From IMG/VR virus record IMGVR_UViG_3300032086_003078, positions 1 through 64,000 of that record: a stretch of 64,000 nt of DNA. One strand, written 5' to 3'. Shown in pieces: positions 1-54,215 of the stretch (position 1 is its first letter; each line of letters begins with the position of its first letter). The notes below the pieces were generated by a model that did not search any database, was not told the DNA's origin, and saw nothing but the letters and a program-made list of their open reading frames with translations. The DNA comes from a virus. The position numbers and the translations under genes were made by a program.

Positions 1-2
1 CC

Positions 3-716
3 CAAGGTGTTATCGTCTTTACATTTAAGCCAACCGACACCCAAGAGCAGATCGACACCAATCTCAAGTTCGTTAAGTATCTTGACGAGAACTCAGAACC
101 AATCCAAGCCGCTATTCAAAAAGAGTGGGACGATATCTTGGATGAGTTTGAAAAAGAGATGCCTCTAGTAAAGGAGCCACCAAAACAAGAATCTCTAAAA
201 TCAATTCTTCGAAACCTAATTAAAGAAGCCATGGAAGACGAAGAATACGAAGGTGTAGAACCAATTGACTACAAGGGCGAGCACTCCGCTCCAATGGCGG
301 AAGATGGTGCTCCTCTATGGAACCTAGCAGACAAAGGTGTTTATCCAGAAGATGTTTATGGTCCTAATGGTCGCAGTTGGTATGGAACTGGTGATGTTCT
401 AGACTGGGATGCTTATGATATTATTCGTGGAGCCTATGGACGACGGGACAAGCAACTAACAATCTACCGAGCAGTTCCAAAAGGCATACGAGGCATTAAT
501 CGTGGCGACTGGGTTACGATTGTAAGGCAATATGCTAAAGACCACGGCGAGAGTGCTCTCAACGGCGAGTATGATATTCTAAAGAAATCAGTAACTGCCC
601 GAGATATTTTCACTGACGGCAACTCTTGGTTAGAGTGGGGATACGACCCACAGCCACGAGTTCCCTATTCAGAACGAGAAGACTGGGAAAGATACCCAGG
701 GAAGAAGAAAAAATGA
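3..716 (+). CDS. 5'-partial protein with C-terminal ADP-ribosyltransferase-like domain and an internal leader-like motif
   Basis: Frame is open from position 3, so the listed TTG start at 138 is probably internal. Internal ESLKSILRNLIKEAME resembles the neighbouring leaders. C-terminal LTIYRAVP...GDWVT...YAKDHG...EWGY resembles ART-fold domains of phage polyvalent proteins. Confidence 0.55.
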   Translation, partial: QGVIVFTFKPTDTQEQIDTNLKFVKYLDENSEPIQAAIQKEWDDILDEFEKEMPLVKEPPKQESLKSILRNLIKEAMEDEEYEGVEPIDYKGEHSAPMAEDGAPLWNLADKGVYPEDVYGPNGRSWYGTGDVLDWDAYDIIRGAYGRRDKQLTIYRAVPKGIRGINRGDWVTIVRQYAKDHGESALNGEYDILKKSVTARDIFTDGNSWLEWGYDPQPRVPYSEREDWERYPGKKKK

Positions 717-898
717 AAATCACAATGAATGAATTAAGAAAAGTGGTCCGCCAAGTAGTGGAGCAAAAGAAAAAAGAAAAGGGCTGGCTTGACATGTTTG
801 TCGATGCCATTACTACAGCAGCACCCCTCGGGCAAGTTGACTTGCTAAAGAGGGGGATGGATTCTATTGAAAAACCCAAGGCTAAAAAGAAAAAATGA
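713..898 (+). CDS. Small protein with MKIT-type leader (MKITMNELRKVVRQVVE)
   Basis: ATG at 713 overlaps the upstream TGA; leader matches those at 3692/4003/4341. Confidence 0.7.
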   Translation: MKITMNELRKVVRQVVEQKKKEKGWLDMFVDAITTAAPLGQVDLLKRGMDSIEKPKAKKKK

Positions 899-1383
899 AA
901 AAACTCCTAACAGAGTGGCGGAAGTATATCAAAGAGGTTGAGAAGATTGCTGATATAGCAACCGACCAAAGCGAAATACAAAAGAGCCTAGATTACTTTT
1001 ATAAAGAACATGCTCCCAGCAAAGCCAAGCGACAAGACCTTGGTGATTTTAAGGGACACCAAATAGCACTCTTTACAGGTGGTGAGTTCGGTAAAGACGA
1101 ACTAATGTTTGTGGTTGATAAAGACGACAGACCTATTGCCTATGTTGCGACCAATCCACACGAAGATGCTTATGCTATTGGGAATGTCCGCAAAGTCAAG
1201 GGTGGAGGCTTTTATATCACCGACCTTTACAACTTCCTAGTTGATAGGTATGGAACTCTGTATAGCGACTCCAAGCAGACAACTGCTGGCGAGAGCATTT
1301 GGAAGAGGCTACAACAAGACCCAGCCCTCAAAGTTGAGGAACCAAGCAAAGAGACAGGCAACCGCTGGCGAGCAACAAAATGA
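895..1383 (+). CDS. Leader-bearing GNAT acetyltransferase-like protein
   Basis: Leader MKKLLTEWRKYIKE; RKVKGGGFYITDLY (acetyl-CoA-loop-like) and LYSDSKQTTAGESIWKRL resemble phage GNAT domains. Confidence 0.6.
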   Translation: MKKLLTEWRKYIKEVEKIADIATDQSEIQKSLDYFYKEHAPSKAKRQDLGDFKGHQIALFTGGEFGKDELMFVVDKDDRPIAYVATNPHEDAYAIGNVRKVKGGGFYITDLYNFLVDRYGTLYSDSKQTTAGESIWKRLQQDPALKVEEPSKETGNRWRATK

Positions 1384-1889
1384 AAAAACTCCTAACAGAA
1401 TGGCGGAAGTTTTTGAATGAATCAAGTATCTTCGATAAGAAGTTGATTTATCGTGGGATGACTATTGATACAGGAAATGCTGCCTTGGCTTCCCAAATAA
1501 GAAAGTTAGCCCGAGGACAAAAGGCAACAATCAGCGAAAAAGAAGCGGGAGATATAATCATTTCCAGCCTCAAGTCGGGCAATGTCGGCGAATCGTGGAC
1601 AACAAATATTGATGTTGCTTCCAATTTCGCAGATGTCTGGGATGCGAAGAATAGAGGTCCAAAACTCCATGTAATATTTACAGCCGCTGTCCCAAAAGAT
1701 TTTGGCTATGACCCTCAATCTGCGGAAGAAGAGCCCGATATGTTTTCAGACGAAAGCGAAGTAAGAATACCTAAAGGCGAAGAGATTGAGATTACCTCGG
1801 CTTCGGTGTTTATTGCTGATAAGAAGCCAAGCAAAAACTGGACGAAATTTAAGAAGGTCGCTCATAAGCCGGGTATTGTGAGGGCATAA
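1380..1889 (+). CDS. Leader-bearing ADP-ribosyltransferase-like protein (R-S-E type)
   Basis: Leader MKKLLTEWRKFLNE; LIYRGM (R), ESWTTNIDVASNFA (STS-like) and DESEVRIP (ExE) in the canonical order. Confidence 0.65.
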   Translation: MKKLLTEWRKFLNESSIFDKKLIYRGMTIDTGNAALASQIRKLARGQKATISEKEAGDIIISSLKSGNVGESWTTNIDVASNFADVWDAKNRGPKLHVIFTAAVPKDFGYDPQSAEEEPDMFSDESEVRIPKGEEIEITSASVFIADKKPSKNWTKFKKVAHKPGIVRA

Positions 1890-1893
1890 ATAA

Positions 1894-2358
1894 ATGAAAA
1901 AACTCCTAATAGAGTGGCGGAAGTTTTTGAAAGAAGAATCTTACATCACCCCTGGGCAAGAGTATGTGGGGCTGATTTTAGATGATGATGCTGTTAAACT
2001 TTTACAATCAAAGATGCCTGAAGTTCCCCAAGGCTGGACCCCAAGGATGCATCATATGACTGTTAAGTTTGGGAGAGAAGGGGTTCCAAATCGCTACAAA
2101 GGTCGCAACAAAGTAAAGGTTGTGGGACTAGCCCAGGACGATAAAGTGTGGGCAGCCAGAGTTGAGACCGATGTTCCTACTCAAAACGACATTCCTCACA
2201 TTACAATTGCTACAGCACCTGGAGTAAGGCCAAATCAATCTAATGATTTTTCTATGGAAGATTACAAACCTATTCCTCCTTTTGAGTTGGAGGGAGAAGT
2301 AAAAGAAAATATACAGACCAACTTCAAAAAAGAAGACCCAAGATTGAGCCATAAATAA
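1894..2358 (+). CDS. Leader-bearing 2H phosphoesterase
   Basis: Leader MKKLLIEWRKFLKEE; two HxT motifs (HHMTV, PHITI). Confidence 0.75.
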   Translation: MKKLLIEWRKFLKEESYITPGQEYVGLILDDDAVKLLQSKMPEVPQGWTPRMHHMTVKFGREGVPNRYKGRNKVKVVGLAQDDKVWAARVETDVPTQNDIPHITIATAPGVRPNQSNDFSMEDYKPIPPFELEGEVKENIQTNFKKEDPRLSHK

Positions 2359-2384
2359 AACAACCTTCTCAAACTATTTAATAT

Positions 2385-2876
2385 ATGGATAGAGAAAGGG
2401 AAGCCTGGAAAAATATTAAGGATAATGCTACAAGCGATTATCACTATGCCGAGGTGTTTGATGCTACACCAACAACCAAGCCAAACTACATTTCAGCAAC
2501 CTTATGGACTACACTAGTTGCCGTTCTTGTGTGTTCGGTGTTCGCAGGTTTCCTGCTCTATCTTTACAATGAGAGCAATATAGAAGAGACCCTCTCAATG
2601 GCCGTCAGCCGTGCGATTATCTCTTTGGAGCAAACCATAGAACTCCAAAGCAAAGAGATTACGAAACTGAAGGCAGAGAACAAGAAGATACACGATTACC
2701 TACAACTTTGGACCCCGCTAGATTTACAACGACTTCAGCGGAAACATAAAAATAAAACACCAACAGAGGACGACCTACTAGACCTTGGTCCTGAAATCAT
2801 TATCAATGGTCGAGCATTACCTCCTCTCAGAAGACTTAACTTGGAGGACGGATTATGCTTACCTTCCTTGGAATAA
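2385..2876 (+). CDS. Single-pass membrane protein with coiled coil
   Basis: Hydrophobic LWTTLVAVLVCSVFAGFLLYLY followed by a heptad-rich segment. Confidence 0.6.
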   Translation: MDREREAWKNIKDNATSDYHYAEVFDATPTTKPNYISATLWTTLVAVLVCSVFAGFLLYLYNESNIEETLSMAVSRAIISLEQTIELQSKEITKLKAENKKIHDYLQLWTPLDLQRLQRKHKNKTPTEDDLLDLGPEIIINGRALPPLRRLNLEDGLCLPSLE

Positions 2877-3658
2877 TTGTTTTAGTAATTTTTGTCCACG
2901 AATTGGGACATTATCTTGCTGCCCGAGCAATGGGTGTCGCAGTTGATAGTTTTTCAATTGGCTTCGGTAAAGTGCTCCTTAAAAAGAAGATGTGGGGAAC
3001 TGAATGGCGATTGTCGCTCCTACCTTTTGGCGGCTATATTATGCCCCGTGGCGAGCAGGATTATTACAACAAAGATGACGACCCAGAATCATTTTGGGCT
3101 GTTGCTCCTTGGCGACGAGGTGTAATCGCTGTAATGGGTCCAGTATTCAACTTGTTGCTTCCCTGGCCTCTATACTTTATGTTCCTTGTGGGACAGCCGT
3201 TCCCCGATGTTGTTGTGCCTGATGGTGCCGAACCAGCAAGGATTGGAGTTATGGATGCGGCTTACTACTCACACAAGATTTCCACCAACTTCTACAAGAA
3301 GATTTGGACTGCCGTCAATACACCAAGAGAACAGCCAATGTCTATCAAAGATGTCGGCGGTCCTGTAGCAGTCTATGAATTCACGGAAAATGCAAAAAAA
3401 AGAAGTCAAGAAACTGGAGACTGGGGGTTCCTTGTAGATTGGATTGTGTTCTTCTCAATTAACCTCGGTGTAATCAACCTATTACCGATCCCAGTATTAG
3501 ACGGCGGACATATAGCCATGGCTGGTTATGAGACTGTAACAAGGAGAAGATTATCAATACTTGCTCGTCGAAGACTAAACTATGTTGGTCTATATCTAGT
3601 AGGTGCTATATTTTTGCTAGCTATACTTTCAGATGCCTCCAGACTTTTTGGAATTTAG
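2855..3658 (+). CDS. rseP: Site-2 intramembrane metalloprotease (M50, RseP-like, no PDZ domain)
   Basis: HELGH zinc motif, FSIGFG, PFGGY, GPVFN and NLLPIPVLDGGH motifs; multiple TM segments. Confidence 0.9.
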   Translation: MLTFLGIIVLVIFVHELGHYLAARAMGVAVDSFSIGFGKVLLKKKMWGTEWRLSLLPFGGYIMPRGEQDYYNKDDDPESFWAVAPWRRGVIAVMGPVFNLLLPWPLYFMFLVGQPFPDVVVPDGAEPARIGVMDAAYYSHKISTNFYKKIWTAVNTPREQPMSIKDVGGPVAVYEFTENAKKRSQETGDWGFLVDWIVFFSINLGVINLLPIPVLDGGHIAMAGYETVTRRRLSILARRRLNYVGLYLVGAIFLLAILSDASRLFGI

Positions 3659-3691
3659 AAACTATTTATAAAGACCTTTAGGGGGAATAAA

Positions 3692-4000
3692 ATGAAAATC
3701 ACAAAATCACAACTTCGTCAAATCATTAAAGAAGAAATTCAAAATGAATATAATACAATGAAGGTGAGTTCTGGTAAAAGACCAGTACAGCGACAAGCGT
3801 CAAGCAAGACACCACTAGAGAGAGCAGGTCGAGGCAAATACTTCGCTGCTGTCGCCGCTTTTAAAAGGTTCATGGAAGAAAACCCAGATGCTGACAGAGA
3901 CATGCTTGGTAATGAATTAGTGAATAATCCACCAGGCGGCAGTTTGCAGGGGTATGAAGAAAGAGTCACACAAATGCTAAGGAACCTCGCTGCGAGATAA
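3692..4000 (+). CDS. Leader-bearing hypothetical protein
   Basis: MKITKSQLRQIIKEE leader; GGGGGA SD upstream. Confidence 0.75.
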   Translation: MKITKSQLRQIIKEEIQNEYNTMKVSSGKRPVQRQASSKTPLERAGRGKYFAAVAAFKRFMEENPDADRDMLGNELVNNPPGGSLQGYEERVTQMLRNLAAR

Positions 4001-4002
4001 AA

Positions 4003-4344
4003 ATGAAGATCACAAAATCACAACTACGACAAATTATCAAAGAAGAAATGGAAGCCATGATGGGCGACGTCCAGGTCGGCGATGAAGTAGATGTCATCGG
4101 CGGTGTTATGGTCGGAGCAGTCGGAGAGATAGTAGCAATGGGTTCAGAAGACGGCAAGCAGATTGTCGTTCTTAATCTACTCCGCCCAGCCGCTGACGAA
4201 AATTACAAAGATCTTGGACCCCAAGTCATAATTCAGCCTGACTTTATTGAAAAGCGAACTGATCTTTTTGCTAAGAGAATGGGGCGCAAAGCAGAGAACC
4301 CTGGACGTGGACCAATGAAATACTACGGAGTCAAAGACGTATGA
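4003..4344 (+). CDS. Leader-bearing KOW-motif protein
   Basis: MKITKSQLRQIIKEE leader followed by VQVGDEVDVIGGVMVGAVGEIV (KOW-like). Confidence 0.7.
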   Translation: MKITKSQLRQIIKEEMEAMMGDVQVGDEVDVIGGVMVGAVGEIVAMGSEDGKQIVVLNLLRPAADENYKDLGPQVIIQPDFIEKRTDLFAKRMGRKAENPGRGPMKYYGVKDV

Positions 4345-4685
4345 AAATCACAAAAACACAACTACGACAAATTATCAAAGAAGAGCTTCTTAAGGAAGCT
4401 GAATTTACAATTCCTGACGAGCAAGGTCTAGAGAAAGAATACAATAAGATTAGAAGAGTATTCAAGATAGCAAAATCTGGGAAATTCAATAAAGACTTGA
4501 CCGATCAGGTTCAAAATGCGGCAGTTGAATATAAAAGAGAAATATATGAAATTGAAAAAGTTTCCGCCGAACTCGATAACTGGAAGAGGTTACTTGAGAA
4601 TACTCAAAAATTGTTCTATTTTATGAGTCGAGGCGGTGATCTACCAGCATTTCAAGAGATGTCTGACGATCCACGGGACGACTGA
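4341..4685 (+). CDS. Leader-bearing helical hypothetical protein
   Basis: MKITKTQLRQIIKEELLKE leader. Confidence 0.75.
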   Translation: MKITKTQLRQIIKEELLKEAEFTIPDEQGLEKEYNKIRRVFKIAKSGKFNKDLTDQVQNAAVEYKREIYEIEKVSAELDNWKRLLENTQKLFYFMSRGGDLPAFQEMSDDPRDD

Positions 4686-4686
4686 G

Positions 4687-5079
4687 GTGAAAATCACCAG
4701 AGATCAAATCCGTGAGATGGTGAAGAGGCAACTTGACGAACGTTGCCAGAAGGGCTACAAGACCCACGAAACTCGCAAAACCAAAAAGATGTTCGGCAGA
4801 ACATACAGAAACTGCGTTAAGGCAGAATCTGAGGAGCCTGTTGAGGACGAGACACTAGAAGAACGTGCCGCCATCCCTATGGAAGATATTATGCGTGCGG
4901 AAGACATTATCAAAAAGCACCTAGAAGAAATGTTTGATGAGATCGGCAGAGATGGTCTGCCTGATAATTTCTCAACAGATATTCTTGTAGAGCCAATCGT
5001 GAAGAAGTATATCAGCGGACGCCGTGCTGACAGAAAACCAAGATTCAACAAAATAACTGGTCGAATGACCCGTCGTTAA
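4687..5079 (+). CDS. Leader-bearing protein with a CxKGY...NCVK motif
   Basis: GTG at 4687 gives MKITRDQIREMVKRQLDE; CQKGYKTH...KKMFGRTYRNCVK resembles the CWKGY...PNCV motif of T4-like phage proteins. Confidence 0.65.
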   Translation: MKITRDQIREMVKRQLDERCQKGYKTHETRKTKKMFGRTYRNCVKAESEEPVEDETLEERAAIPMEDIMRAEDIIKKHLEEMFDEIGRDGLPDNFSTDILVEPIVKKYISGRRADRKPRFNKITGRMTRR

Positions 5080-5095
5080 GATAATCTAAAAACCC

Positions 5096-5123
5096 TTTAC
5101 AACTAAAATATACCTGCTACAAT
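5096..5123 (+). promoter_or_regulatory. sigma70-like promoter
   Basis: TTTACA-16 nt-TACAAT with TG extension; AGGAGG SD before the ATG at 5155. Confidence 0.65.
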
Positions 5124-5154
5124 AGTTCTGGAAAACTATAGGAGGAGTTCGTCT

Positions 5155-8100
5155 ATGGTACGGCTCGCACATTTTGGTGATACACACATCAAGAACCTCA
5201 AATACCACTATGAATATCGCAAGGTGTTTGAACAAGCCTACGAGATGCTACGGGAGCAGAAGGTTGATTACATTATCCACTGCGGCGACCTAGCCCATAC
5301 AAAGACACAACTCTCACCAGAGTATTTCGAGTTGGCTACAGAGTTCCTAAAGAACCTAGCCGACATCGCTCCAACCCATATCATCCTTGGGAACCACGAC
5401 GGCAACCTACGGAATAGCAGCCGCCAAGACGCCATCAGTCCAATCGTTGATGCGCTCGACCACCCTGACCTTCACCTACACAAGTTTTCAGGGGAAGTAA
5501 AATTAGATGATAACATTACACTAAATGTTCTATCAGTCTTTGACGAGACCAACTGGACTGACCCAACAGATACAGACAGGATTAACATTGCCCTGTATCA
5601 TGGAGCAGTCAATAACAGCCGAACAGACCTTGGCTGGATTATGGACCACGGCGACCATGACGTTTCAGTCTTTGATAAATTTGATTATGCGTTCCTTGGA
5701 GATATTCACAAGACTAATCAGTGTCTCAATGACTCAGGCACCATTCGCTATTGCGGTTCTACTATCCAGCAGAATCACGGCGAGACAAACGACAAGGGCT
5801 TTTTGATTTGGGATATTGAGGACAAGACCAATTATGAGGTCAATCACCACGTCCTAGAAAACCCCAAACCCTTTATGACGATTGAACTCACACAAAAGGG
5901 CAATATGCCTCGCAACCTAAACGTGCCCGAAGGTGCTCGTCTTCGCATTGTTACGCACCACAAGGTTTCGCTAGACAAGATCCGCCGTGTGATGGATATT
6001 GCGAAGAGCAGGTTCAAGCCAGAGAGTTTGTCGTTCGTCAACAAAGCAGGGCTAAAGCGGGACAGCGTGAATGTCGATGACCTTGGCAACACAGAGAACC
6101 TACGAGACCCAGCCGTCCAAGAGCGACTTATTCGGGAATACCTAAAAGAATATGAACCCGACACCAAAACACTAGAGCGAGTATTCCAACTTAACTCTCG
6201 CTACGACGCTCAAGTCAATGGCGAAGACGCTGGACTACGCAATGTGAATTGGTCCCTAAAGAGTATGGAGTTCGACAACCTCTTTAACTACGGAGAAGGC
6301 AATAGTGTTAATTTTGAAAAGCTTAGCGGCGTTGTCGGTATCTTTGGTAAAAACTATTCAGGCAAGAGTTCTATTATCGATAGTATGCTCTACACTGTTT
6401 ATAATTCGATCAGTAAGAACAATCGTAAGAACCTAAACATTATCAACCAGAACAAGCCCGCAGGCTGCGGACGAGTTGAGATTGACGTTGCGGGCAAAAC
6501 CTACATCATTGAGCGGAAGTCAGAGAAATACACTAAGAAGCTTCACGGGGAAGAAACAGAAGAAGCCAAGACCGATGTAGAGTTTTCAGTGATTGACCCA
6601 GCCACTGACGAAGAAGTCAGCCTAAACTCGTTGGACCGCAACGGCACAGATAAGGCAATCCGTAAAATCTTTGGAAGCCTTGATGACTTCTTGCTTACAA
6701 GTATGTCTAGTCAAATGGGGGCAATGACTTTCATCAACGAGGGCTCAACCAAGCGCAAGGAAATCCTAGCCAAGTTCTTGGACCTCGACCAGTTTGAGAA
6801 GAAGTTTAAGCTTGCGAAGAACGACAGTATAGAAACCCGTGCTCTTTTAAAGAAGCTGGAAGACAACACTTTTGATGACGATATTGCTAATCTTCAGGAA
6901 CAACTAGCTACAAACGAAGAACAAAAGACAGAACAAGAAAACTCTTGTAAAAAGTTTAAAGACAAGTTAAACAAAATCACAGAACGTGTCGATGAAATAC
7001 AAGACCTCTTTGCGTCCGCTCCAGTTGAGATTATCAACATCAAGAAAGAGAACAAGCGTCTTACGACAGCAACTGCTGAACTAGAAGAATGCGAACTACG
7101 AATTGCGGGAGCACAAAAGAAAAAAGAAATACTTCTAGAAAAACTAACCAAGATTAATGATTTCTTGGAAGAGTATGATAGCGAAGCATTAGACGCTCAA
7201 ATCGCTGAAGTCCTATTAATCAAAGAAGAGATTAGAGATGTAGAGACAAAACTTACGATTGAGAACCGCAACAGGAAGAACTACGAGAAGCGTGTTAAGC
7301 TTTTGGGAGAAGTTCCTTGTGGTCCAGAGTTTTCACATTGTAAGTTTATTAAGGACGCCTACAAGAGCAAGTCAAAGCTCACCGACGTTCGCATTACAAT
7401 CCACAATCTAGAAACAGAGCTTCGTCAGCACAATGAAAAGCTTGATGAAATGAATGTTGATAGTTTGCGTTCTCAAAAGGAAAAGCACGATAAACTCCTA
7501 GAGAAACAAAGAGATTTGTCAACTGAAGCAACCAGCCTTGATTTGCTGGTAGAAAAAACAAACAATGAAATTAATACGCTTACTAATGATATCAAAGATG
7601 CTACCGACCGCATCCAAATCTACGAAGACAACAAAGAAGCTATTGAAAATCGTGAAGGACTTATTCAAGAACAGTCCGATTTAGGGGAACAAAAAATCCT
7701 AACAGAGAATGAGCTAGTTATTTGTGAATCTAAGATTATGGACTTCATTAAGCAGCACGGCGGCATTGAACAACAGATTGCGAACCTCCAAGATAAGAAG
7801 CAAGAATTGGAAGACCTTCGCACAGAGTATTCAGCCTATGACTTGTTTATGCGTTGTACTCACAGCAACGGCATCAGTTATGATGTAGTGAAGCGTATGC
7901 TACCTCTTATCAATGAAGAGGTCAGCACTGTTCTATCTAACGTCACTGACTTTGAGATTTTCTTCGAGGCAGAAAAGAATAAACTAGACATTTTTATTAA
8001 GCACCCCAAATACGAAGCACGACCTTTGGAAATGGCTTCAGGTGCTGAAAAGACTTTGGCGGCTATCGCTATCCGCATCGCTCTAACCAATGTATCAACT

Positions 8101-10273: not shown

Positions 10274-10757
10274 AATAGTTAAACAAATGACCGACTATGT
10301 TGTTGATGTTTTGGAGGAGAGGAGACCTGAGTTTTCAGGAATGCCAGTCTGTCCTTTTGTAAAACCAGACAGAATAACAGACCAGCTTTATATGGATGTT
10401 TTTGATAATACTCGTGACACACTTGTAGAAACGATCTTGAGGTTTGTTAAGTCAGGGAAAAGAAGCGCCCTGTTCGCACAGCCTAACGTTGATATTGGCA
10501 GCGAGGAAACAAAAGGATACCAAGAGTTTATAAACATTGTACTAGAAGAAAGTGGAAATGGGGATATTCTAGCTTTGTGTTTCAACCCTAATGATGATTT
10601 GGAGGTGGATGGTTATAACCCAAGATCAAGAGCGCCTTATTTTTTGATAAACATGGCATATAGGGATCATCTATCTAAGTCGCATCATATTCTACGAGAA
10701 ACAAAATACTATGATAACCTGCCCCCAAGCTATAAAAAGTACCTGAATGTAAAATGA
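10254..10757 (+). CDS. Hypothetical protein with CPF motif (DUF1415-like)
   Basis: MPVCPFVK near the N-terminus; FNP and RSRAPY later. Confidence 0.5.
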   Translation: MKLDKNKIVKQMTDYVVDVLEERRPEFSGMPVCPFVKPDRITDQLYMDVFDNTRDTLVETILRFVKSGKRSALFAQPNVDIGSEETKGYQEFINIVLEESGNGDILALCFNPNDDLEVDGYNPRSRAPYFLINMAYRDHLSKSHHILRETKYYDNLPPSYKKYLNVK

Positions 10758-11383
10758 AAATACTAATCAGTTCTTGTGTGTTTGGAAACAGAGTGAGGTG
10801 GAATGGTAGCAATCGCCGCTCTGAAGAGATACACGAGTGGGCTGAAGCCAACGGCTTTGAACTTGTTCCAATATGTCCAGAGCACGAGCTTTTTGGCACC
10901 CCACGAAAGCCAATCAGGCTCCGTCAAAAAGATGACGAAGTTTTGGGAATTATGGGCAACCAAGAAGTTTTCGGGCAACTAAAAGATAAATGCGATGAAA
11001 TCGCAGAAAGACACAACGATGTAGTTGGCTTCATTGGAATATCTAATTCACCTTCCTGCGGCTTATCTACAGGTGTAAAAGACAGAGGTTCAACAATAAA
11101 AGCACCTATGCATCAGAGCCTTGACTGTCCAACAACAGAGATAAGCTCAATGAATACGGAAGCAAATTGCAATACATTTTTAAAAAGAGTAAGAAAATAC
11201 GAGAACGACAAGAAGATAAAGAAACTTCACGACCTTGCTGTGTTGAGAGGGTCAAGTACATACCAAGATCCTGAGACCGGCTTCTTGGTTATGACGAGCC
11301 AGTATCTAAGTTCCAAAGGGTCTTGTTGCGAAACAGGCTGCCGCCACTGCCCTTGGGGAAAAGTAAGAAAGAACGGGAAATGA
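10754..11383 (+). CDS. DUF523/TudS-like Fe-S protein fused to a C-terminal Cys-rich DUF5522-like domain
   Basis: ILISSC..G..VRWNG, PICPE, GTPR, SPSCG (DUF523); YQDPETG...CCETGCRHCPW (DUF5522-like). Confidence 0.75.
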   Translation: MKILISSCVFGNRVRWNGSNRRSEEIHEWAEANGFELVPICPEHELFGTPRKPIRLRQKDDEVLGIMGNQEVFGQLKDKCDEIAERHNDVVGFIGISNSPSCGLSTGVKDRGSTIKAPMHQSLDCPTTEISSMNTEANCNTFLKRVRKYENDKKIKKLHDLAVLRGSSTYQDPETGFLVMTSQYLSSKGSCCETGCRHCPWGKVRKNGK

Positions 11384-12315: not shown

Positions 12316-13452
12316 ATGGTAGATATCCCTACACTAGACATTGAAGATTACGACCCAGACCTCAATGAGGAACAGGAGACGGTTGAAGATAAATCGGGTG
12401 GTGCCCTAACTTACGCTATTGTTGGCGCAGGTCAAGGTGGTGGTCGTATGGCTAAAGCCTTTTATGATATGGGCTACACAAAGACCGTTGCTGTGAATAC
12501 AGCCCGCTCTGACCTTAATGGTCTAGATATCCCAGAGAACCAAAAGTTCTTGGTCGATGAACACGGCGAGCAGGGTGCTGGCAAAGACCAAGCCAAAGCC
12601 GAAGCAGCCATCGAGCGTAAAGAACAAGAAGTGTTCAACAAGTTCCGTGAAGTATTCGGCAGCAACGTTGATCGCATTTTGATTTGTCTTGGTGTTTCGG
12701 GCGGCTCTGGCGGCGGCACAGTCAATACTCTTATCAAGGTAGCCAAGAAGTACTTCACCTACATCGGCGTTGAGAACGTTGATGAGCGTGTTGGTGTGAT
12801 TGCTTCCCTTCCAACTGCTGGTGAGTCTGCTTCCCCAACCGTAGCCAAGAACGCTCACACTCGCATTACCCAACTTTGCGGGCTCGCAGAAAAAGGAAAG
12901 ATCGCTCCACTCATTATGGTGGATAACGAAAAGATCAAAAAACTATATCCAAAACTCACAGTCAAGAAGTTCTGGACCACAATCAACAACACAGTCGCTG
13001 GCTTGTTCCACGTCTTCAACGTTCTAGCAAACCAAGACTCAGAATACACAACCTTTGATGCTACAGATTACGACAGTATCATGAAGCAGCCAGGCTGTAT
13101 GATTATGGGTGTTACCAGTGTCAAGAACCTTGAGAACGAAACTGCTGTCTCAAGTGCTCTCAAGAAGAACCTAGAGAAAACACTTCTCGCTGAAGGTTTC
13201 GACCTAACAACTGCTACAGGTGCTGCTTGTATTGTTGTTGGTAGCGAAGAGATCTTTGAAGAGACTGTTGGTTTGATGGACAACATTGAGTTCGGCTTCG
13301 ATACTTTAGCTGCTTTGACTGGTGGTGCTATGGTTCACCGTGGTATCTACGAGGACGACAAGAAAGACAAGCTCGTAACTTACACATTGGTCAGCGGTCT
13401 TAAGCGACCAGCCAAGCGAATTGAAGGACTAAAGAAATTCCTAAAGAAGTAA
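12316..13452 (+). CDS. FtsZ/tubulin-family GTPase
   Basis: VGAGQGGGRM (T1), AVNT, GAGKD (T3), GGSGGG signature (T4), VDN, TFDATD (T7-like). Confidence 0.92.
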   Translation: MVDIPTLDIEDYDPDLNEEQETVEDKSGGALTYAIVGAGQGGGRMAKAFYDMGYTKTVAVNTARSDLNGLDIPENQKFLVDEHGEQGAGKDQAKAEAAIERKEQEVFNKFREVFGSNVDRILICLGVSGGSGGGTVNTLIKVAKKYFTYIGVENVDERVGVIASLPTAGESASPTVAKNAHTRITQLCGLAEKGKIAPLIMVDNEKIKKLYPKLTVKKFWTTINNTVAGLFHVFNVLANQDSEYTTFDATDYDSIMKQPGCMIMGVTSVKNLENETAVSSALKKNLEKTLLAEGFDLTTATGAACIVVGSEEIFEETVGLMDNIEFGFDTLAALTGGAMVHRGIYEDDKKDKLVTYTLVSGLKRPAKRIEGLKKFLKK

Positions 13453-16391: not shown

Positions 16392-18269
16392 ATGGCTGAT
16401 AATAACAACAACAATGCAAATAATCCAAGAAACAATCAGTCTCCTTTATTTAAGAGACTCACAAGGTTGTTTAGTGGTCCAATTGTAAATTATGACCGAC
16501 CATCTGTCATCAGAGGAACACGCAGAGACGTCAAGAAGTATACTTTTACTTCCTCAACAGGCAGAGAGTTTAAAAAGAAAGAGTATCATAACCCTTTTAG
16601 TGGTCTGAGTAATAAAGTCCTATATCAGAGAAACAAGCAAGTAAGATATACAGACTTCGAACAGATGGAGTATATGCCAGAGATTGCTTCTGCTATTGAT
16701 ATTTATGCTGACGAGATAACAACCTCAACTGCGTTTAATCCACTAGTAAACATTGATTGTCAAAATAGGGAAATAAAAGACATAGTAAGCACCTTGCTTT
16801 ATAATGTACTAAATGTTGAGTCAAACTTATTTGGCTGGTCTAGAAGCATGTGTAAATACGGTGACTATTATTTATATCTTGACATCGATGATAAGATGGG
16901 TATCACAAATGCGATACCGCTTCCAGTCCGTGAAATAGAAAGGATCGAAGGAACAGATCCAACTAATCCAAACTATATCCAATATTTTTGGCAAGGAGCC
17001 GAAGGGAATAAAGGCGTAACTTTTGAGAACTGGCAAATTTCACACTTCCGTGTTCTAGGAAATGATAAGTATGTTCCCTACGGAACCTCAGTCCTGGAAC
17101 CATCACGACGCATTTGGCGACAGCTTACACTTCTAGAAGATGCGATGATGGCTTATCGTATCGTCCGATCGCCCGAGCGCCGAGTATTCTACATTGATGT
17201 CGGCAATATTGCAGCGGAAGACGTAGAACAATATATCGAACAAGTCAAGACCCAGATGAAAAGAAACCAGGTTGTAGACGAAGATTCTGGTCGTGTGGAT
17301 TTACGTTACAATGCGATGAGTGTTGATGAAGATTATTATATACCAGTTCGTGGTGCTAGTAATAATACTAGGATTGAGACTTTAGCTGGCGGTCAGTTCA
17401 CTGGGGACATTGATGATGTTAATTACCTTCGTGATAAACTGTTTTCAGCACTAAAGGTACCAAAAGCTTATTTGGCACAGTCTGACGCCCAGGAAGACAA
17501 AACAACATTGTCACAAAAAGACATTCGTTTTGCTAGAACAATACAAAGATTACAAAGAGTCGTAGTCGCTGAATTAGAGAAGATTGCTATTATTCATCTT
17601 TATACACTAGGCTACAGGGATTCTGATTTGCTCTCGTTCAAGTTGTCACTTAACAATCCATCAAAAATAGCTGAACTACAAGAGCTAGAGCATATGAGAC
17701 TTAAGTTTGATGTCGCAGGGTCTGCGACTGAAGGATACTTCTCTAAGCAGTGGGTATACCGAAACATCTTCAAGGCATCAGAAGAGGAAATCGAAAGAAT
17801 ACAAGTCGAGCAGTTTTCAGATGCTTTACACGCCGCCGCTTTGGAGCAGACAGCTACACCGCCAGAAGAAGGCGGCGGAGGTGATTTAGGTGGCGACCTT
17901 GGAGGCGATGATTTAGGTGGCGACCTTGGCGACGAAGAAGTTGGAGAAGAACCAGCAGATGAAGGACCACTTTTGGCTGAGCCTGAGATAGAGCCAGGTC
18001 AAAGAAATGACAATGGTTACATGAGAGTTAAGCGCCCAAAATGGAAAGAAGGAGCCTTTAGAAGAAGTGCCCTAGCAGCTTCTGGAACTAATTTAGCATC
18101 ATCGTCACATAGAAACCTATTTAAAGGGTGGAGCGGTCAGATGTCTCCATTATCTAGAGGAATAGTTGGCGAAGGAACAAACCCAGAAGAACAAATGTTG
18201 TTTGACACTGAAAACAGCATCAAGAAACTTATAGAGCAATTGGAAACTAAAAATGAAGGTCAAGCATAA
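16392..18269 (+). CDS. gp20: Portal protein (T4 gp20-like)
   Basis: PEIASAIDIYADE, LLEDAMMAYRIVRSPERRVFYIDVGN, EDYYIP, IETLAGG, LFSALKVP. Confidence 0.97.
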   Translation: MADNNNNNANNPRNNQSPLFKRLTRLFSGPIVNYDRPSVIRGTRRDVKKYTFTSSTGREFKKKEYHNPFSGLSNKVLYQRNKQVRYTDFEQMEYMPEIASAIDIYADEITTSTAFNPLVNIDCQNREIKDIVSTLLYNVLNVESNLFGWSRSMCKYGDYYLYLDIDDKMGITNAIPLPVREIERIEGTDPTNPNYIQYFWQGAEGNKGVTFENWQISHFRVLGNDKYVPYGTSVLEPSRRIWRQLTLLEDAMMAYRIVRSPERRVFYIDVGNIAAEDVEQYIEQVKTQMKRNQVVDEDSGRVDLRYNAMSVDEDYYIPVRGASNNTRIETLAGGQFTGDIDDVNYLRDKLFSALKVPKAYLAQSDAQEDKTTLSQKDIRFARTIQRLQRVVVAELEKIAIIHLYTLGYRDSDLLSFKLSLNNPSKIAELQELEHMRLKFDVAGSATEGYFSKQWVYRNIFKASEEEIERIQVEQFSDALHAAALEQTATPPEEGGGGDLGGDLGGDDLGGDLGDEEVGEEPADEGPLLAEPEIEPGQRNDNGYMRVKRPKWKEGAFRRSALAASGTNLASSSHRNLFKGWSGQMSPLSRGIVGEGTNPEEQMLFDTENSIKKLIEQLETKNEGQA

Positions 18270-20002: not shown

Positions 20003-20596
20003 ATGACTAAGAAATACGTACTACAAGAGTTTATGAACCTAGATTACAGCGACGATCTTCTCACAGAAGAAGAGCGTGAAGGTAATCGCCAAGGGATACA
20101 CCTTATTGTAGCAGGGAAGATACAGGCTGCCGGCAAAAAGAACGGCAACGGGCGTATTTACCCCCGACCAATCCTCGAAAGAGAGATGAAGAACTACGAA
20201 AAGCTTGTTCGTGAGGGTCGTGCTATTGGTGAACTAGACCACCCAGACAGTTCAGTCGTAGAATTGAAGAATGCTAGCCATCTAATCACACAAGTGTGGT
20301 GGGAAGGTGACGATGTCATGGGCAAAATGAAGATTTTGGATACTCCAGCGGGTCAGATCGCCAAACAACTAGTAGAAGGTGGCGTTCAGTTAGGTATTTC
20401 AAGTCGTGGTCTTGGCTCAACTCGCCAACAAGGCGGAGTTACCATGGTTGAAGACGATTTCCAACTACTTTGCTTCGACTTGGTATCAGAACCAAGCACA
20501 ACAGGTGCCTTTTTGGTTGCTGAAAGTCAAGTTAAGACACACTTAACCAAGGCTGACCGAATCAATCGTGCCTTGAACGACATTTTGGGCGACTAA
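20003..20596 (+). CDS. gp21: Prohead core protease (T4 gp21-like)
   Basis: NGNGRIYP, AIGELDHP, LGISSRGLGS, FDLVSEPS. Confidence 0.96.
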   Translation: MTKKYVLQEFMNLDYSDDLLTEEEREGNRQGIHLIVAGKIQAAGKKNGNGRIYPRPILEREMKNYEKLVREGRAIGELDHPDSSVVELKNASHLITQVWWEGDDVMGKMKILDTPAGQIAKQLVEGGVQLGISSRGLGSTRQQGGVTMVEDDFQLLCFDLVSEPSTTGAFLVAESQVKTHLTKADRINRALNDILGD

Positions 20597-21627: not shown

Positions 21628-22023
21628 ATGAAAAAATCGGAACTCAAAAATATTATTAAAGAATGTGTCCGTGAGGTAATCTTTGAAGAAGGTATGCTAT
21701 CAGGCATCATCTCAGAGGTTGTACGAGGCATGGGAACAACCTTGGTACAGGAAGCTAGAACAGCACCTGTCTCACAACCATCAAAAGCCTTTTCGGAGAG
21801 CAAAAAGCAAGTTCTTGATGCTATTGGTAAGAACTCCTACGAAGATGTGAAGAAGAAGTTCTCTAACCCAGAACTTTTTGAAGGTACCCGACCTATCGCT
21901 GAATCTAAGAGCGCTAAGGGCGGAGCACTATCTGGCGTAGCACCTAGTGACCCAGGTGTAGACATTTCAAATATTCCCGGCTTTGGAAGCTGGTCTGCTG
22001 TTGCGAGCGCAACAAGAAAGTAA
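21628..22023 (+). CDS. Head-module protein with leader-like N-terminus
   Basis: MKKSELKNIIKECVREV resembles the MKIT leader family. Confidence 0.65.
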   Translation: MKKSELKNIIKECVREVIFEEGMLSGIISEVVRGMGTTLVQEARTAPVSQPSKAFSESKKQVLDAIGKNSYEDVKKKFSNPELFEGTRPIAESKSAKGGALSGVAPSDPGVDISNIPGFGSWSAVASATRK

Positions 22024-25427: not shown

Positions 25428-27179
25428 ATGTCTGTAATTAACACACTCACCGAAGGCATTAGACAACGCTCTCTTGCCAATGAAGGTGAAGCTCTTCTTG
25501 AGAAGTGGCAGAAGACTGGACTCCTCGAAGGACTTGACGACCACAAAGCTGGTTCGATGGCTCGCCTTCTTGAGAACCAAGCCGCTCAGCTTCTTAAGGA
25601 ACAATCTACAATGGCTGCCGGCGATGTCGAAGGTTTTGCCTCTGTTGCTTTCCCAATCGTTCGTCGTGTATTCGGCAACCTTATCGCACAAGACCTAGTC
25701 TCAGTGCAACCAATGTCTCTACCAAGTGGACTCATTTTCTTCCTTGACTTTGTGTTCTCTGTTGATGGTGGCATGGTTGATCCAACAGACGGCACCGACG
25801 GCTTCCGCCTAGGTCAGAGACAAGACACCTCTGTTTACGGTGGTGGCAAAGTTGGTTCTGGCATCATTGATGGCGTCGATCTAGGTGGCAACAACGGTCA
25901 GCTTTCTGCTTACAGCTTGAATAACGGCTACTCTAGTCCAACAGGCTCTCAGACAGGTGTCGTTGAAGTTCTCGCCTCTGGTACTTTCGGCGACGTAGCT
26001 TCTATTCACGACTGGGCCGACGTTCTTCACAGTGATCCAGTATTTACCTCTGGTACATCTGGTTACCTCGTTGGTAAAATTCCAACACCTTCTAGCCTTA
26101 ACAAGGATGACTTGGTAGCTGTTACCTTGTCTAGTTCTCTTGGTAACGCTGGTCTATTTGACGGCGGCGCTCGAAGCTGTTTCCAAGTACGTCGCTTGAC
26201 ACAGTTCTCTGGTACAGCCGAAGACCACCTACTAGTTGTTTTGGCTCAGCCAACAATAGCTACTGCTGATGACGCACACACAATTCTTAGTGCTGCTGCC
26301 GGTGAGGTTGGTTCTAGCACCTTCCCAATTGTTGATGGCTTCAACAACGGCGGCGCTATTGGTTCTATAGTTGGTGAGGCAACTTGGGGTCTTGAAGCCC
26401 AAGCCGGCATCCCAGAAATCGACATCAAGGTTGATTCTACTGCCGTAACAGCTATCACCAAGAAGCTTAAGGCTAAGTGGTCTCCAGAGCTAGCTCAAGA
26501 CTTGAATGCTTACCACAACCTCGACGCTGAAGTTGAGTTGACAAGCATCCTTTCTGAGCAAGTTGCTCTTGAAATCGACCAAGAAATCCTTGAAGATCTC
26601 GTCAAGGGTGCTACCGCTGGTACATTGTACTGGTCTCGCAGCCCAGGTAAGTTCCTCAACCGTGAAACAGGTCGTCGTCTTGTCGGCACCACATACCCTG
26701 ACTTCACAGGTACTGTCTCCGAATGGTACGAAACACTTCTTGAAACAGTCAACGAAGTAAGTGCTCGTATTCACCGTAAGACACTTCGTGGCGGCGCAAA
26801 CTTTGTTGTTTGCTCTCCAGAAATGGCTAACATTCTTGAATTCACAAGCGGCTTCCGTGCCAACGTCAACGTTGATGCTGACGGCTCTTGGGGTGCTATG
26901 AATGTCGGTTCTATTAGCCGTAAGATGGACATTATTGTCGATCCTTACTTTACCCGTAACTTGCTCCTTGTCGGTCGTAAGGGCTCTAGCTTCCTCGAAA
27001 GTGGATATGTTTACGCTCCTTACGTCCCACTACAAGTCACACCAACCATCTTTGGTACAGAAGATTTCGTGCCCCGCAAGGGCGTCATGACTCGCTATGC
27101 CAAGAAGATGGTGCGTCCTGACATGTACGGACTAGTTATTTGTCAAGATTTGGTCTCTAACGTCGATCATGCGTCGTAA
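25428..27179 (+). CDS. gp23: Major capsid protein (T4 gp23-like)
   Basis: LLENQ, VRRVFGNLIAQDLVSVQPMSLPSGLIF, KLKAKWSPELAQDL.AYH.LDAE.EL, YAPYVPL, GVMTRY. Confidence 0.98.
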   Translation: MSVINTLTEGIRQRSLANEGEALLEKWQKTGLLEGLDDHKAGSMARLLENQAAQLLKEQSTMAAGDVEGFASVAFPIVRRVFGNLIAQDLVSVQPMSLPSGLIFFLDFVFSVDGGMVDPTDGTDGFRLGQRQDTSVYGGGKVGSGIIDGVDLGGNNGQLSAYSLNNGYSSPTGSQTGVVEVLASGTFGDVASIHDWADVLHSDPVFTSGTSGYLVGKIPTPSSLNKDDLVAVTLSSSLGNAGLFDGGARSCFQVRRLTQFSGTAEDHLLVVLAQPTIATADDAHTILSAAAGEVGSSTFPIVDGFNNGGAIGSIVGEATWGLEAQAGIPEIDIKVDSTAVTAITKKLKAKWSPELAQDLNAYHNLDAEVELTSILSEQVALEIDQEILEDLVKGATAGTLYWSRSPGKFLNRETGRRLVGTTYPDFTGTVSEWYETLLETVNEVSARIHRKTLRGGANFVVCSPEMANILEFTSGFRANVNVDADGSWGAMNVGSISRKMDIIVDPYFTRNLLLVGRKGSSFLESGYVYAPYVPLQVTPTIFGTEDFVPRKGVMTRYAKKMVRPDMYGLVICQDLVSNVDHAS

Positions 27180-53516: not shown

Positions 53517-54215
53517 ATGAATATATTCAATCCATGGCGAAAGTTTTTGTTACAAGAATCAGGATTCAACAGAATCATGAATATTTTGCAAGGTAAAGTG
53601 ACATCAGTAGATACTGTCGGTTTCTTAACTGGCGAAAACCCCATGGCTCAAAAGATGTCATCTAAGGAGAATCGAGCCCTCAACAAGGAGTTGATGGCTT
53701 GGATGCGTGATCGTGGCTACGGTCCCATTCGCATTCGTGGTAAGTTTGGCAACAAAGAGCGCTCTATGATTATTCCAAACATTACTAGGGAAGATATGGT
53801 AGAGGCGGGCAAAACATTCAATCAAGAGTCTGTAATCTGGGGGAAGAGAACCGAAAAAGATAAGTTTATTTTCGAATATATTGAGGGCGACAAGACTATT
53901 CAGAAAAGAGATGTTGTTCTTTTTGATAAAGATGTTCAAGCAAGGGAAGATTACTACTCGCAAGAGAGACAATCAGCCGGGCGTAAATTTTATATTCCAT
54001 TTTTTGATGATGAGTATGAGATGGAAGAAGGTCAGGAATCAGAATATGATTTGCCTGAATTGACCGAGAGGCAAATCGCCAAACACAAAGAACTTATCCA
54101 GGAAATCAATCACCGCCTGAAACTCTCTTTAGACGGATTGAGAACAGAGAAGTCTCGCTGGCAGCAGCGGCAGATCGCTCGTCTAAGACTTCGGGAACTA
54201 AAGAAGAAACTATGA
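53517..54215 (+). CDS. Leader-bearing protein (DUF3293-like core)
   Basis: MNIFNPWRKFLLQE leader; GFLTGENP...N...L...G...E.S....FNQESV. Confidence 0.6.
   Translation: MNIFNPWRKFLLQESGFNRIMNILQGKVTSVDTVGFLTGENPMAQKMSSKENRALNKELMAWMRDRGYGPIRIRGKFGNKERSMIIPNITREDMVEAGKTFNQESVIWGKRTEKDKFIFEYIEGDKTIQKRDVVLFDKDVQAREDYYSQERQSAGRKFYIPFFDDEYEMEEGQESEYDLPELTERQIAKHKELIQEINHRLKLSLDGLRTEKSRWQQRQIARLRLRELKKKL

Follow-up and report, generated by a model that had tools for sequence, protein, structure and literature searches.

Head-packaged ADP-ribosyltransferases (ARTs) such as Alt of phage T4 are well known, and they are predicted to be common in myoviruses in the available part of PMC9503650. The T4 internal proteins are a diverse set that, as far as the available portion of PMC3012670 describes them, have only a capsid-targeting sequence (CTS) in common, and gp21 of T4 is described in parts of two further papers as cleaving after the Glu of L/I-X-E (PMC9026906; PMC12991175). 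A related assemblage is found in the polyvalent proteins (Iyer et al. 2017, PMC5512222), whose stock domains, in the accessible text of that paper, include ART, GNAT ('typically' beside ART), 2H, DdrB-like ParB, nucleotidyltransferase (NTase) and kinase domains; the same text proposes that head-delivered 2H domains degrade defence nucleotides or act as RNases. Here we describe three adjacent open reading frames (ORFs) at positions 895-2358 of a 64,000-nucleotide stretch of viral DNA (the window), which is the first 64 kb of the 88,413-base IMG/VR virus record IMGVR_UViG_3300032086_003078 (CheckV estimate 48% complete). Each of the three joins the same short N-terminal leader to a different cargo domain, and we compare this arrangement with the systems above.

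All three ORFs lie on the plus strand, which carries nearly all genes of the window. ORF1 (895-1383, 162 amino acids) is followed, with a 4-nucleotide overlap (ATGA), by ORF2 (1380-1889, 169 amino acids) and, after a gap of 4 nucleotides, by ORF3 (1894-2358, 154 amino acids). Their predicted cargos are a GNAT-fold (acyl-CoA N-acyltransferase-like) domain, a mono-ADP-ribosyltransferase fold of the R-S-E type and a 2H phosphoesterase of a Trl1-CPDase-like family, respectively. A first-pass annotation, made from the sequence without database searches, had placed YRG, SWTT and ESE motifs in the second of these ORFs and twin HxT motifs in the third, and all of these are present, the last as HMT (residues 54-56) and HIT (residues 102-104). 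The common N-terminus, which we call leader B, consists of 14 residues, MKKLLxEWRKxhxE, i.e. MKKLL[T/I]EWRK[Y/F][I/L]xE. Its coding DNA is identical at 36-39 of 42 nucleotides between the three ORFs, and the sequence downstream of it is unrelated. The leaders read MKKLLTEWRKYIKE in ORF1 (895-936, end I-K-E), MKKLLTEWRKFLNE in ORF2 (1380-1421, end L-N-E) and MKKLLIEWRKFLKE in ORF3 (1894-1935, end L-K-E). In the models of ORF1 and ORF2 the leader forms a separate, low-confidence N-terminal helix, spanning residues 2-14 outside the domain in ORF1 and residues 3-14 in ORF2 (predicted local distance difference test, pLDDT, 45-59).

The phage is a T4-like marine myophage, uncultured so far, in which 895-2358 falls within a hypervariable slot. 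We put it at slightly better than even that the segment represents three leader-cargo cassettes that are independent and swappable and belong to a capsid-cargo system of the T4 type. Each cassette joins a 14-residue amphipathic leader to an unrelated small, predicted enzyme. In such a system the leader, like the CTS of T-even internal proteins, would bring the cargo into the prohead scaffolding core, the gp21-type protease would cut it off after the glutamate of (L/I)-x-E, and the mature enzyme would be ejected together with the DNA. ORF1 would then probably act as an acyl-CoA-dependent acyltransferase, ORF2 would modify a host macromolecule, as T4 Alt does, and ORF3 would most likely act on cleaved RNA (tRNA) by opening its 2',3'-cyclic phosphate ends, with the hydrolysis of cyclic or 2'-5' nucleotide signals a less likely role. 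A 2H enzyme delivered in this way might be at work before phage transcription begins, as the first-pass annotation suggested. We infer targeting, cleavage and injection, as well as all enzyme activities and targets, from the comparisons that follow.

The three leader ends (I-K-E, L-N-E and L-K-E) fit the gp21 site (L/I)-x-E. The terminal glutamate, E14, is invariant in 27 of 27 aligned ART sequences and nearly invariant in the GNAT (alignment A2) and 2H families, as judged in alignments selected by cargo homology and not by leader. Similar leaders are found in the T-even phage RB10, where Ip4 begins MKTYQEFITE, IpI begins MKTFKEFTSTTTPVSTITE and Ip5 begins MKTFKEFATKTTITE; the last two start MKTFKEF, then ITE. 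Leader B and these RB10 leaders have a common pattern of M-K, hydrophobic-x-E-aromatic and hydrophobic-x-E. Because the leaders end in a gp21 site and resemble those of T-even internal proteins, capsid targeting is the best reading of them. The shared leader is real, and the T4-type head genes of the phage make the packaged-cargo interpretation, whether Alt-like or internal-protein-like, a reasonable one. The match between the cargo repertoire and the domains of polyvalent proteins as listed in the available text of PMC5512222 (ART, GNAT, 2H, ParB, NTase, kinase) was also counted in favour of head delivery.

Leaders of ART cargos vary between phages, from the W-type MKKLLTEWRKFLNE of the window to MKLLLENWREY... 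in locus L003 and the Y-type MNLLREYIRELLTE in L004-L008, and unrelated neighbouring genes within one phage carry the same leader dialect. At least 105 of 160 relatives of the 2H protein have no leader according to a regular-expression search that misses some leaders. Elsewhere, leaders stand inside longer ORFs at the joints between domains (P0166-P0169, P0246, L004:6447-8135 and a HAD-ART ORF of L007). The CCA-adding enzyme ORF at L004:6447-8135, for example, has the internal leader SLLREYIRGLLNE at 394-407, followed by an unknown domain, and L007:5254-6453 reads HAD_SAK_1, leader, ART. In these polyprotein-like ORFs leader-like peptides recur at each joint, a placement that fits a cut site. 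A full-text literature search with the leader peptide strings found no paper.

The genes that a T4-type CTS requires, a gp21-type protease and T4-type head genes, coexist in this phage. The window encodes a Portal_T4 protein (16392-18269, Pfam E 4.5e-81), a gp21-type prohead protease (Peptidase_S77, PF03420; 20003-20596, plus strand, Pfam E 5.6e-28) and a Gp23 major capsid protein (25428-27179, Pfam E 7.9e-69), and PHROGs identify terminase, tail sheath, tail tube, baseplate, UvsX, DnaB and ribonucleotide reductase genes in the phage. The S77 protease shares 33.7% identity with T4 and other T-even gp21 across 82% of its length, and its identity to a Flavobacterium phage protease reaches 51%. 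The closest cultured capsid proteins belong to Microcystis phage Mel-JY01, Flavobacterium phage immuto and Rhodothermus phage RM378, and the homologues of the ORF1-ORF3 cargos derive from marine metagenomes, Tara records included. Of 10 related records, 5 encode an S77 protease, among them all three of those at least 90% complete. The predicted complex of the S77 protease with ORF2 scored 0.00 in both runs, which were made without controls, and counts neither way.

Leader-like stretches also occur in the capsid protein and the prohead protease. Residues 22-35 of the capsid-protein propeptide (window 25491-25532) contain ALLEKWQKTGLLE, which resembles leader B, and the post hoc pattern LL..W[RQK].. 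has 4 hits in the 88-kb record against 0.045 expected, namely the three leaders and the capsid propeptide. An independently built leader hidden Markov model (HMM) did not have the capsid protein among its 14 best matches and gave true leaders only E 0.12-4.8; we therefore treat the propeptide resemblance as a weak lead only. The N-terminus of the S77 protease (window 20003-20070; also in L031 and L032) has a leader-like start, K..L.E[FY], and a DLLTE that is invariant in 3 homologues; judging by the sequence, this stretch may be a propeptide for targeting or self-cleavage, such as has been discussed for T4 gp21. We looked for co-variation of the protease N-terminus with the leader dialect and did not find it, as G009 and G010 pair REFY/REYY-type protease N-termini with ENW-type cargo leaders.

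Set beside the T-even system, the window phage shares a gp21-type protease, a T4-type portal and capsid protein, and hypervariable cargo loci. The T-even CTS on IPI-III, Ip4 and Ip5 is, as here, a short N-terminal peptide common to unrelated small proteins; it has 10-19 residues, and leader B has 14 residues of other sequence. The putatively packaged R-S-E ART of ORF2 parallels T4 Alt, itself a head-packaged ART. Where the two differ is in what is carried: the T-even internal proteins are small basic inhibitors, whereas the predicted cargos here are folded enzymes (GNAT and 2H, and in relatives a CCA-adding enzyme, a HAD phosphatase and NUDIX).

The slot that holds the three genes is best understood from its relatives. 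When we ran the family HMMs of the three cargos over 26 related viral loci, each extended by 5-6 kb on either side, every locus held only the cargo for which it had been fetched, and two of the three cargos occurred together in none of the 26. On this count we rejected a conserved GNAT-ART-2H operon. A close relative, L016, is 97.7% identical in nucleotide sequence in the GNAT gene and has the same left flank (a 61-amino-acid ORF) and right flank (a membrane protein and an M50 protease). Between these flanks, L016 carries an ART-PolyVal cassette (Pfam 6.3e-15), a second, more canonical GNAT-like cassette, an unknown cassette and the GNAT gene; the R-S-E ART and 2H genes are absent from its slot. 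The conserved tandem toolkit that the first-pass annotation had envisaged for host modification or anti-defence is therefore not borne out by either the 26 loci or L016, and the GNAT, ART and 2H genes are independent, swappable leader-cargo cassettes rather than an operon with a fixed job. Homology between cassettes is confined to the leader of about 45 nucleotides, which is consequently a likely cross-over site.

Other leader-bearing genes in the neighbourhoods of relatives encode CCA-adding enzymes, NUDIX, DnaJ, an NTP_transf_2 protein and HAD_SAK_1, and one leader-bearing ORF of 1,216 amino acids joins an ORF1-type GNAT domain to a Zeta/AAA_33 kinase. A 274-residue leader-B cassette of L016 (2538-3362) has a HEIQH motif and no Pfam match, and it may be a zinc metallopeptidase cargo, as far as this motif tells.

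Several of these features tie the locus to the polyvalent proteins, for which the same domains (ART, GNAT, 2H, ParB-like, NTases) are predicted to be delivered with the DNA in the available text of Iyer et al. (2017, PMC5512222): the sister cassette of L016 is an ART-PolyVal, and one 2H relative is fused to Phage_Mu_F and another to ART-PolyVal. Polyvalent proteins are, however, single polypeptides anchored to MuF, portal or MPTase, whereas the window has separate genes, each with its own leader, and ORF2 has an R-S-E triad and not the H-Y-D of ART-PolyVal. Some relatives of the window cassettes are fused with leaders at the joints, unlike the separate ORFs here. What would be new is the delivery format, that is, single genes or leader-jointed polyproteins, a T4-type clip-off address and a slot for cassette exchange.

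The GNAT assignment of ORF1 made in the first-pass annotation holds up in structural comparison. From 99 relatives, 33 were aligned with the query (alignment A2, 34 sequences), and the predicted model has a pLDDT of 89.4. Searched against the PDB with Foldseek, the model gave 16 matches at E ≤ 1e-3, of which those listed are all GNAT or GNAT-like; at the top stand ICL2 and Rv1916 of M. tuberculosis with their GNAT-like, acetyl-CoA-binding domain (3e-5 to 2e-4), and ordinary GNATs come next. VIA-align, run on 48,161 chains, returned 229 chains at Z ≥ 5, and the best 50 rows all have the acyl-CoA N-acyltransferase fold. The top match is Rv1916 (8g8k_A; Z 9.4, root-mean-square deviation (rmsd) 2.8, 112 aligned positions, domain residues 47-162), alongside ICL2 (9.4), NatD (8.2), AtaT (7.8) and TacT2 (7.7). 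The loop R99-K-V-K-G-G-G105 (1189-1209, plus strand) lies between a strand and a helix, at the position of the GNAT CoA-pyrophosphate loop (motif A-like). The GNAT fold is firm at the level of the model, and ORF1 is probably an acyl-CoA-dependent acyltransferase. ICL2/Rv1916 and AtaT/TacT are its closest structural matches, at sequence identities of only 7-14%, and they are tied with hundreds of other GNATs; no function is transferable from them.

For ORF2, a word-indexed search found 53 relatives at 54-97% identity, none of which contains a Pfam domain, and 26 of them were aligned with the query (alignment A1, n = 27). Invariant in the 27 sequences are R25 (YRG), E71-S72-W73, H97, E125 and E127, the key codons being R25 at 1452-1454, S72 at 1593-1595 and E125/E127 at 1752-1760 on the plus strand. 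In the AlphaFold2 model (pLDDT 82.9, predicted template modelling score 0.78), R25 falls in the first strand (20-30), S72 in the strand 72-74 and E125-S-E127 ahead of the strand 127-129, which in this model is the canonical R / S-T-S / E-x-E layout. The best Foldseek rows are the Rhs ART toxins TreTu and TreX (4.7e-3 and 6.8e-3, probability 0.99), followed by the A chains of cholera and heat-labile toxins, PltA and a guanine-specific ART. VIA-align, which works independently of Foldseek (48,161 chains), places TreX first (8s2m_B, Z 7.4, rmsd 3.2, 104 aligned positions), and PltA (6.5), heat-labile toxin (LT; 6.3), Scabin (6.2) and pertussis toxin (5.5) follow; about 40 of its 50 rows can be assigned to the ART superfamily, the other 10 being unplaced. 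Since no row reaches Z 8, any single structural match is modest, and the ART call for the modelled fold rests on the consistency of the match list together with the invariant triad. By fold and motifs, then, the ORF2 cargo appears to be an R-S-E mono-ADP-ribosyltransferase with a complete catalytic triad, and the corresponding claim of the first-pass annotation survives a check of both the fold and the catalytic residues.

The best structural matches of ORF2, namely TreX/TreTu, the cholera, heat-labile and pertussis-like A subunits and Scabin, share with it the R / S-T-S-like / E-x-E arrangement on strands 1, 2 and 5. They differ in identity to ORF2 being 12-22%, with Z only 5.5-7.4 and no family HMM, and, unlike them, ORF2 comes without a delivery or immunity partner. 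No profile of the T4 Alt/VIP2 family matches ORF2, which is structurally nearer the cholera toxin (CT), pertussis toxin (PT), TreX and Scabin group (Z 5.5-7.4) than the Alt/VIP2/C3 group (C3 3.3, Vis 4.7). Tpt1 (7yw2_A) scores Z 4.4, also below the R-S-E toxins. In BFVD, 9 viral models match the ORF2 model at E ≤ 1e-3, including ParB-like nuclease-domain proteins of mycobacteriophages. The A1 profile gave chance-level rows only against PDB sequences, the only NCBIfam row was at chance level (a fimbrial chaperone model, E 0.032, 13.6 bits against a cut-off of 352), and the ORF2 protein has no match in the GenBank phage collection.

The 2H assignment of ORF3 likewise stands. The protein matches PF08302 with 29.9 bits (cut-off 23), an alignment limited to the second lobe (residues 65-119), and 12 of 12 close family members match this family too; its ESM Atlas neighbours are viral clusters bearing PF08302. 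When 1.84 billion representatives were searched with a profile, 1,963 relatives came up at E ≤ 1e-3, whereas NCBIfam gave nothing meaningful for ORF3, as for the other two cargos. Across 81 diverse short relatives with a mean column identity of 25%, the sole invariant columns are H54, T56, H102 and T104, that is, the two HxT motifs H54-M-T56 (2053-2061) and H102-I-T104 (2197-2205, both on the plus strand). Among the 81, 67 match PF08302 and 1 matches 2_5_RNA_ligase2. From the sequence, ORF3 is a 2H phosphoesterase of the Trl1-CPDase type. It resembles the CPDase of the fungal tRNA ligase Trl1 (PF08302) in the twin HxT motifs and the above-cut-off match, and its relatives, like the phage 'Swiss Army Knife' RNA-repair proteins, are fused to CCA-adding enzymes, HAD_SAK_1 and a P-loop kinase; unlike both, ORF3 stands alone as a minimal domain of about 120-140 residues. 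In the GenBank phage collection it has one match only, in an unannotated 595-kb uncultured phage.

The first-pass annotation had compared ORF3 with Acb1, the 2H enzyme that degrades cyclic nucleotides of CBASS. Both Acb1 (T4 gene 57B) and ORF3 are small phage proteins of about 150 amino acids in the 2H superfamily, but family membership does not back the analogy: the Pfam family Acb1 (PF23474) matches none of the 81 ORF3 relatives at E ≤ 0.01, compared with 67 for the Trl1-type CPDase family, and it recovers the positive control, 57B of RB10, at 2.7e-60. Fusions point in the same direction. We scanned 36 longer ORF3 relatives, picked from 150 mostly for exceeding the domain length, and found 12 fused to a CCA-adding enzyme or poly(A) polymerase, 2 to HAD_SAK_1, which is a 'Swiss Army Knife RNA repair' phosphatase, 1 to AAA_33, 1 to ART-PolyVal and 1 to Phage_Mu_F. 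Because of the fusions with CCA-adding enzymes and RNA-repair phosphatases, the evidence favours ORF3 as a healer of 2',3'-cyclic-phosphate RNA ends over an Acb1 analogue.

The Acb1 gene of RB10 has a neighbourhood of its own worth recording. In this phage (L045, KM606999.1; 7312-8461), gene 57B (Pfam Acb1 2.7e-60, domain from residue 9) adjoins ipI and Ip5, and the first 8 residues of its product, MMEFKDFS, resemble the capsid-targeting leader MKTFKEFT/A of these two proteins. The start of RB10 Acb1 may be a remnant of a capsid address, or 8 residues could match by chance. A literature search on Acb1 together with capsid targeting, internal protein or virion found no claim of Acb1 being packaged in the available portions of the sources.

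A number of results weigh against the capsid-cargo interpretation or against parts of it. Enrichment of the T4 late-promoter motif TATAAATA is lacking, as it has 3 matches where 2.4 are expected, and none of these lies upstream of the cassettes on the plus strand; scans for sigma-70 promoters and terminators were uninformative. The mature cargos have isoelectric points of 5.95, 7.86 and 6.11 and are thus not basic like the T4 internal proteins, and some leader-bearing relatives are enzymes of 500-840 amino acids, which would be unusual as CTS cargo. Gene position gives no support, since in the one complete relative examined (G009, 203 kb) the leader-B genes, only four and all in one cluster, lie about 100 kb from the head module. 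The near-identity of the leaders at the DNA level could be due to recent duplication or gene conversion instead of selection on the peptide. As to the enzymes themselves, ORF1 matches no curated family HMM in Pfam or NCBIfam, and its catalysis is uncertain because its relatives do not conserve the GNAT CoA loop: motif A is Q/R-x-x-G-x-G/A, and about one third of the 34 aligned sequences have other sequences at the loop position (K100-V-K-G103-G-G105). The structural matches of ORF2 to ARTs are of middling strength, with only weak Foldseek matches in the PDB (none at E ≤ 1e-3, the best at 4.7e-3), and searches found neither a Pfam family (E ≤ 1) nor a PHROG (E ≤ 0.1) for it, nor a meaningful match to any other curated family HMM. 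The ORF3 profiles A3 and A5 have no chain at E < 0.2 in the PDB sequence set.

Could the leader serve a purpose other than packaging? The helix might be an assembly or linker module that unites separately encoded RNA-repair and host-modifying enzymes inside the infected cell, as a 'Swiss Army Knife' whose parts associate non-covalently or through leader joints, or an address to a membrane or replication compartment. In keeping with this, many leader cargos are RNA-end enzymes of the kinds fused in Swiss-Army-Knife-type proteins (CCA-adding, HAD_SAK_1, 2H, NUDIX, AAA_33), internal leaders occur at domain joints, the leader is a four-turn amphipathic helix in the models, and the G009 cassettes lie far from the head genes. 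We nevertheless consider it rather unlikely, as the conserved (L/I)-x-E end fits gp21 specificity, the leader resembles the T-even CTS, an S77 protease is present in each complete leader-bearing genome checked, and some cargos have nothing to do with RNA (ART-PolyVal, DnaJ and the metallopeptidase-like HExxH protein). The shared 5' ends could also have no function as peptides and represent a recombination or translation-initiation cassette under gene conversion, placed in front of ordinary early or middle cytoplasmic enzymes. The 36-39 of 42 identical nucleotides, and the leader being the sole inter-cassette homology and a likely cross-over site, would be expected from such a cassette. However, the peptide is kept across phages despite different codons and dialects, all 27 ART sequences retain its terminal Glu, and some leaders stand within long ORFs, where initiation is unneeded; this explanation therefore seems highly improbable to us.

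Two further alternatives concern what the enzymes do. The link of 2H enzymes and KptA to RNA repair is reviewed in PMC9503650, available in part, and ORF2 and ORF3 could form a repair pair in which the 2H enzyme opens a 2',3'-cyclic phosphate to a 2'-phosphate and the ART removes it with NAD+, like KptA/Tpt1. The two genes are adjacent in the window, the Trl1-CPDase-like family is of the type that leaves a 2'-phosphate (PMC9503650, in the same part), and, of 6 ART loci, 3 have HAD_SAK_1 next to or fused to the ART and 2 have CCA-adding enzymes nearby. Yet ORF2 has the R-S-E triad of macromolecule-modifying ARTs and scores higher with CT, PT and TreX (Z 5.5-7.4) than with Tpt1 (4.4), and the two genes occur together in 0 of the 26 related loci, L016 having neither, which makes such a pair quite improbable. 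It is also unlikely, though less so, that ORF3 is an Acb1-like sponge-breaker that degrades the cyclic oligonucleotides or 2'-5' signals on which CBASS, type III CRISPR and related defences rely. 2H enzymes are capable of this, the available text of PMC5512222 proposes it for head-delivered polyvalent 2H domains, the 36 longer relatives include one Phage_Mu_F and one ART-PolyVal fusion, and the RB10 gene sits beside ipI/Ip5 with a start like their leader. Weighing on the other side are the count of 0 of 81 for Pfam Acb1 against 67 of 81 for PF08302, the PDB search with A3 and A5 described above, and the predominance of CCA-adding enzymes and RNA-repair phosphatases among the fusions.

If the leader is a capsid address, marine T4-type phages would load their heads with folded enzymes by means of a plug-in tag, and not only with small inhibitors, and near-identical phages would exchange the cassettes by recombination at the leader. 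This would join T-even internal proteins, polyvalent proteins and RNA-repair 'Swiss Army Knife' proteins, so far described separately; injected effectors of uncultured phages could also be recognised by a simple sequence rule, and the 14-residue tag might be tried for loading cargo in cultured relatives. It is tempting to speculate further, though we hold this to be doubtful, that phages ship a pre-made RNA-repair and host-modification kit in the capsid, addressed by leaders and in part made as leader-jointed polyproteins that the protease cuts. Such a kit would comprise 2H, ART and GNAT enzymes, to which relatives would add NUDIX, a CCA-adding enzyme and a HAD RNA-end phosphatase. Its ready-made enzymes could reverse tRNA or RNA damage inflicted by abortive-infection nucleases, even when phage genes can no longer be translated, and the kit would amount to a disaggregated counterpart, processed by a protease, of the 'Swiss Army Knife' and polyvalent proteins. 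If, conversely, the leader is not a capsid address, the finding shrinks to three correctly annotated accessory enzymes.

On either side of the slot lie conserved genes, including some with a second type of leader (leader A). The left flank is a 61-residue ORF (713-898, plus strand; MKITMNELRKVV...) whose DNA is 91% identical to L016 3356-3573. On the right, a membrane or coiled-coil protein (2385-2876, plus strand) is conserved in L016, and it is followed by an RseP-like M50 metalloprotease without PDZ domains (2855-3658, plus strand; Pfam M50 E 6.3e-53; TIGR00054 151.8 bits against a cut-off of 147.55), also kept there. This intramembrane protease and the preceding protein (2385-3658) separate two arrays of leader cassettes, the second of which consists of four small plus-strand ORFs (3692-5079, with starts at 3692, 4003, 4341 and about 4684) that open with MKITKxQLRQIIKEE and have counterparts in L016. 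Together with the ORF at 713, they define the second leader as MKIT[K/M]xxLRQ[I/V][I/V]KE. The protein of the ORF at 4003 has no match in the GenBank phage collection, nor does window 1-5200 have a DNA match there. Leader-A-like starts are found on two further ORFs, at 21628-22023 (MKKSELKNIIKE...), which sits within the head module, with the protease gene on one side and the capsid gene on the other, and at 72309-72611 of record G000 (...KARLKEIIKEE).

The first-pass annotation had also suggested ART-like domains in the first ORF of the window and at 54212, which our searches do not confirm. Neither ORF has a Pfam or NCBIfam match, and nothing was found by hhalign against the ORF2 alignment or by BLASTP against the ART-PolyVal cassette of L016. 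The first ORF (3-716, plus strand) stands upstream in the same string of genes and is cut by the contig start; what remains is the C-terminal portion of a protein with a ParB-like nuclease domain (phrog_2579, 'ParB C-terminal domain', E 3.6e-34). Two indirect leads attach to it: its nearest named ESM Atlas cluster is ART-PolyVal, at only 0.75, and the ORF2 model matches mycobacteriophage ParB-like nuclease-domain proteins in BFVD. The ORF at 54212 belongs to a pair with weaker leader-B-like starts (53517-54724, plus strand; MNIFNPWRKFLLQE and MKSFEQSFREFLTE). The first of the pair, 53517-54215, matches DUF3293 (1.1e-9) and, below the cut-off, the S-adenosylmethionine (SAM) lyase family (3.6e-4), and by sequence it may be a SAM-lyase-like anti-restriction cargo.

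As to the remainder of the record, we found no CCA-adding enzyme (PF01743) or RNA ligase (PF09414) in the 88 kb, and no tRNA genes in the record or window searched, the record being 48% complete. A TubZ/PhuZ-like tubulin is encoded at 12316-13452, just upstream of the terminase (Tubulin 4.5e-9, TubZ-like_C 4.7e-7), and a single phage gene at 10754-11383 fuses a 2-thiouracil desulfurase domain to DUF5522.

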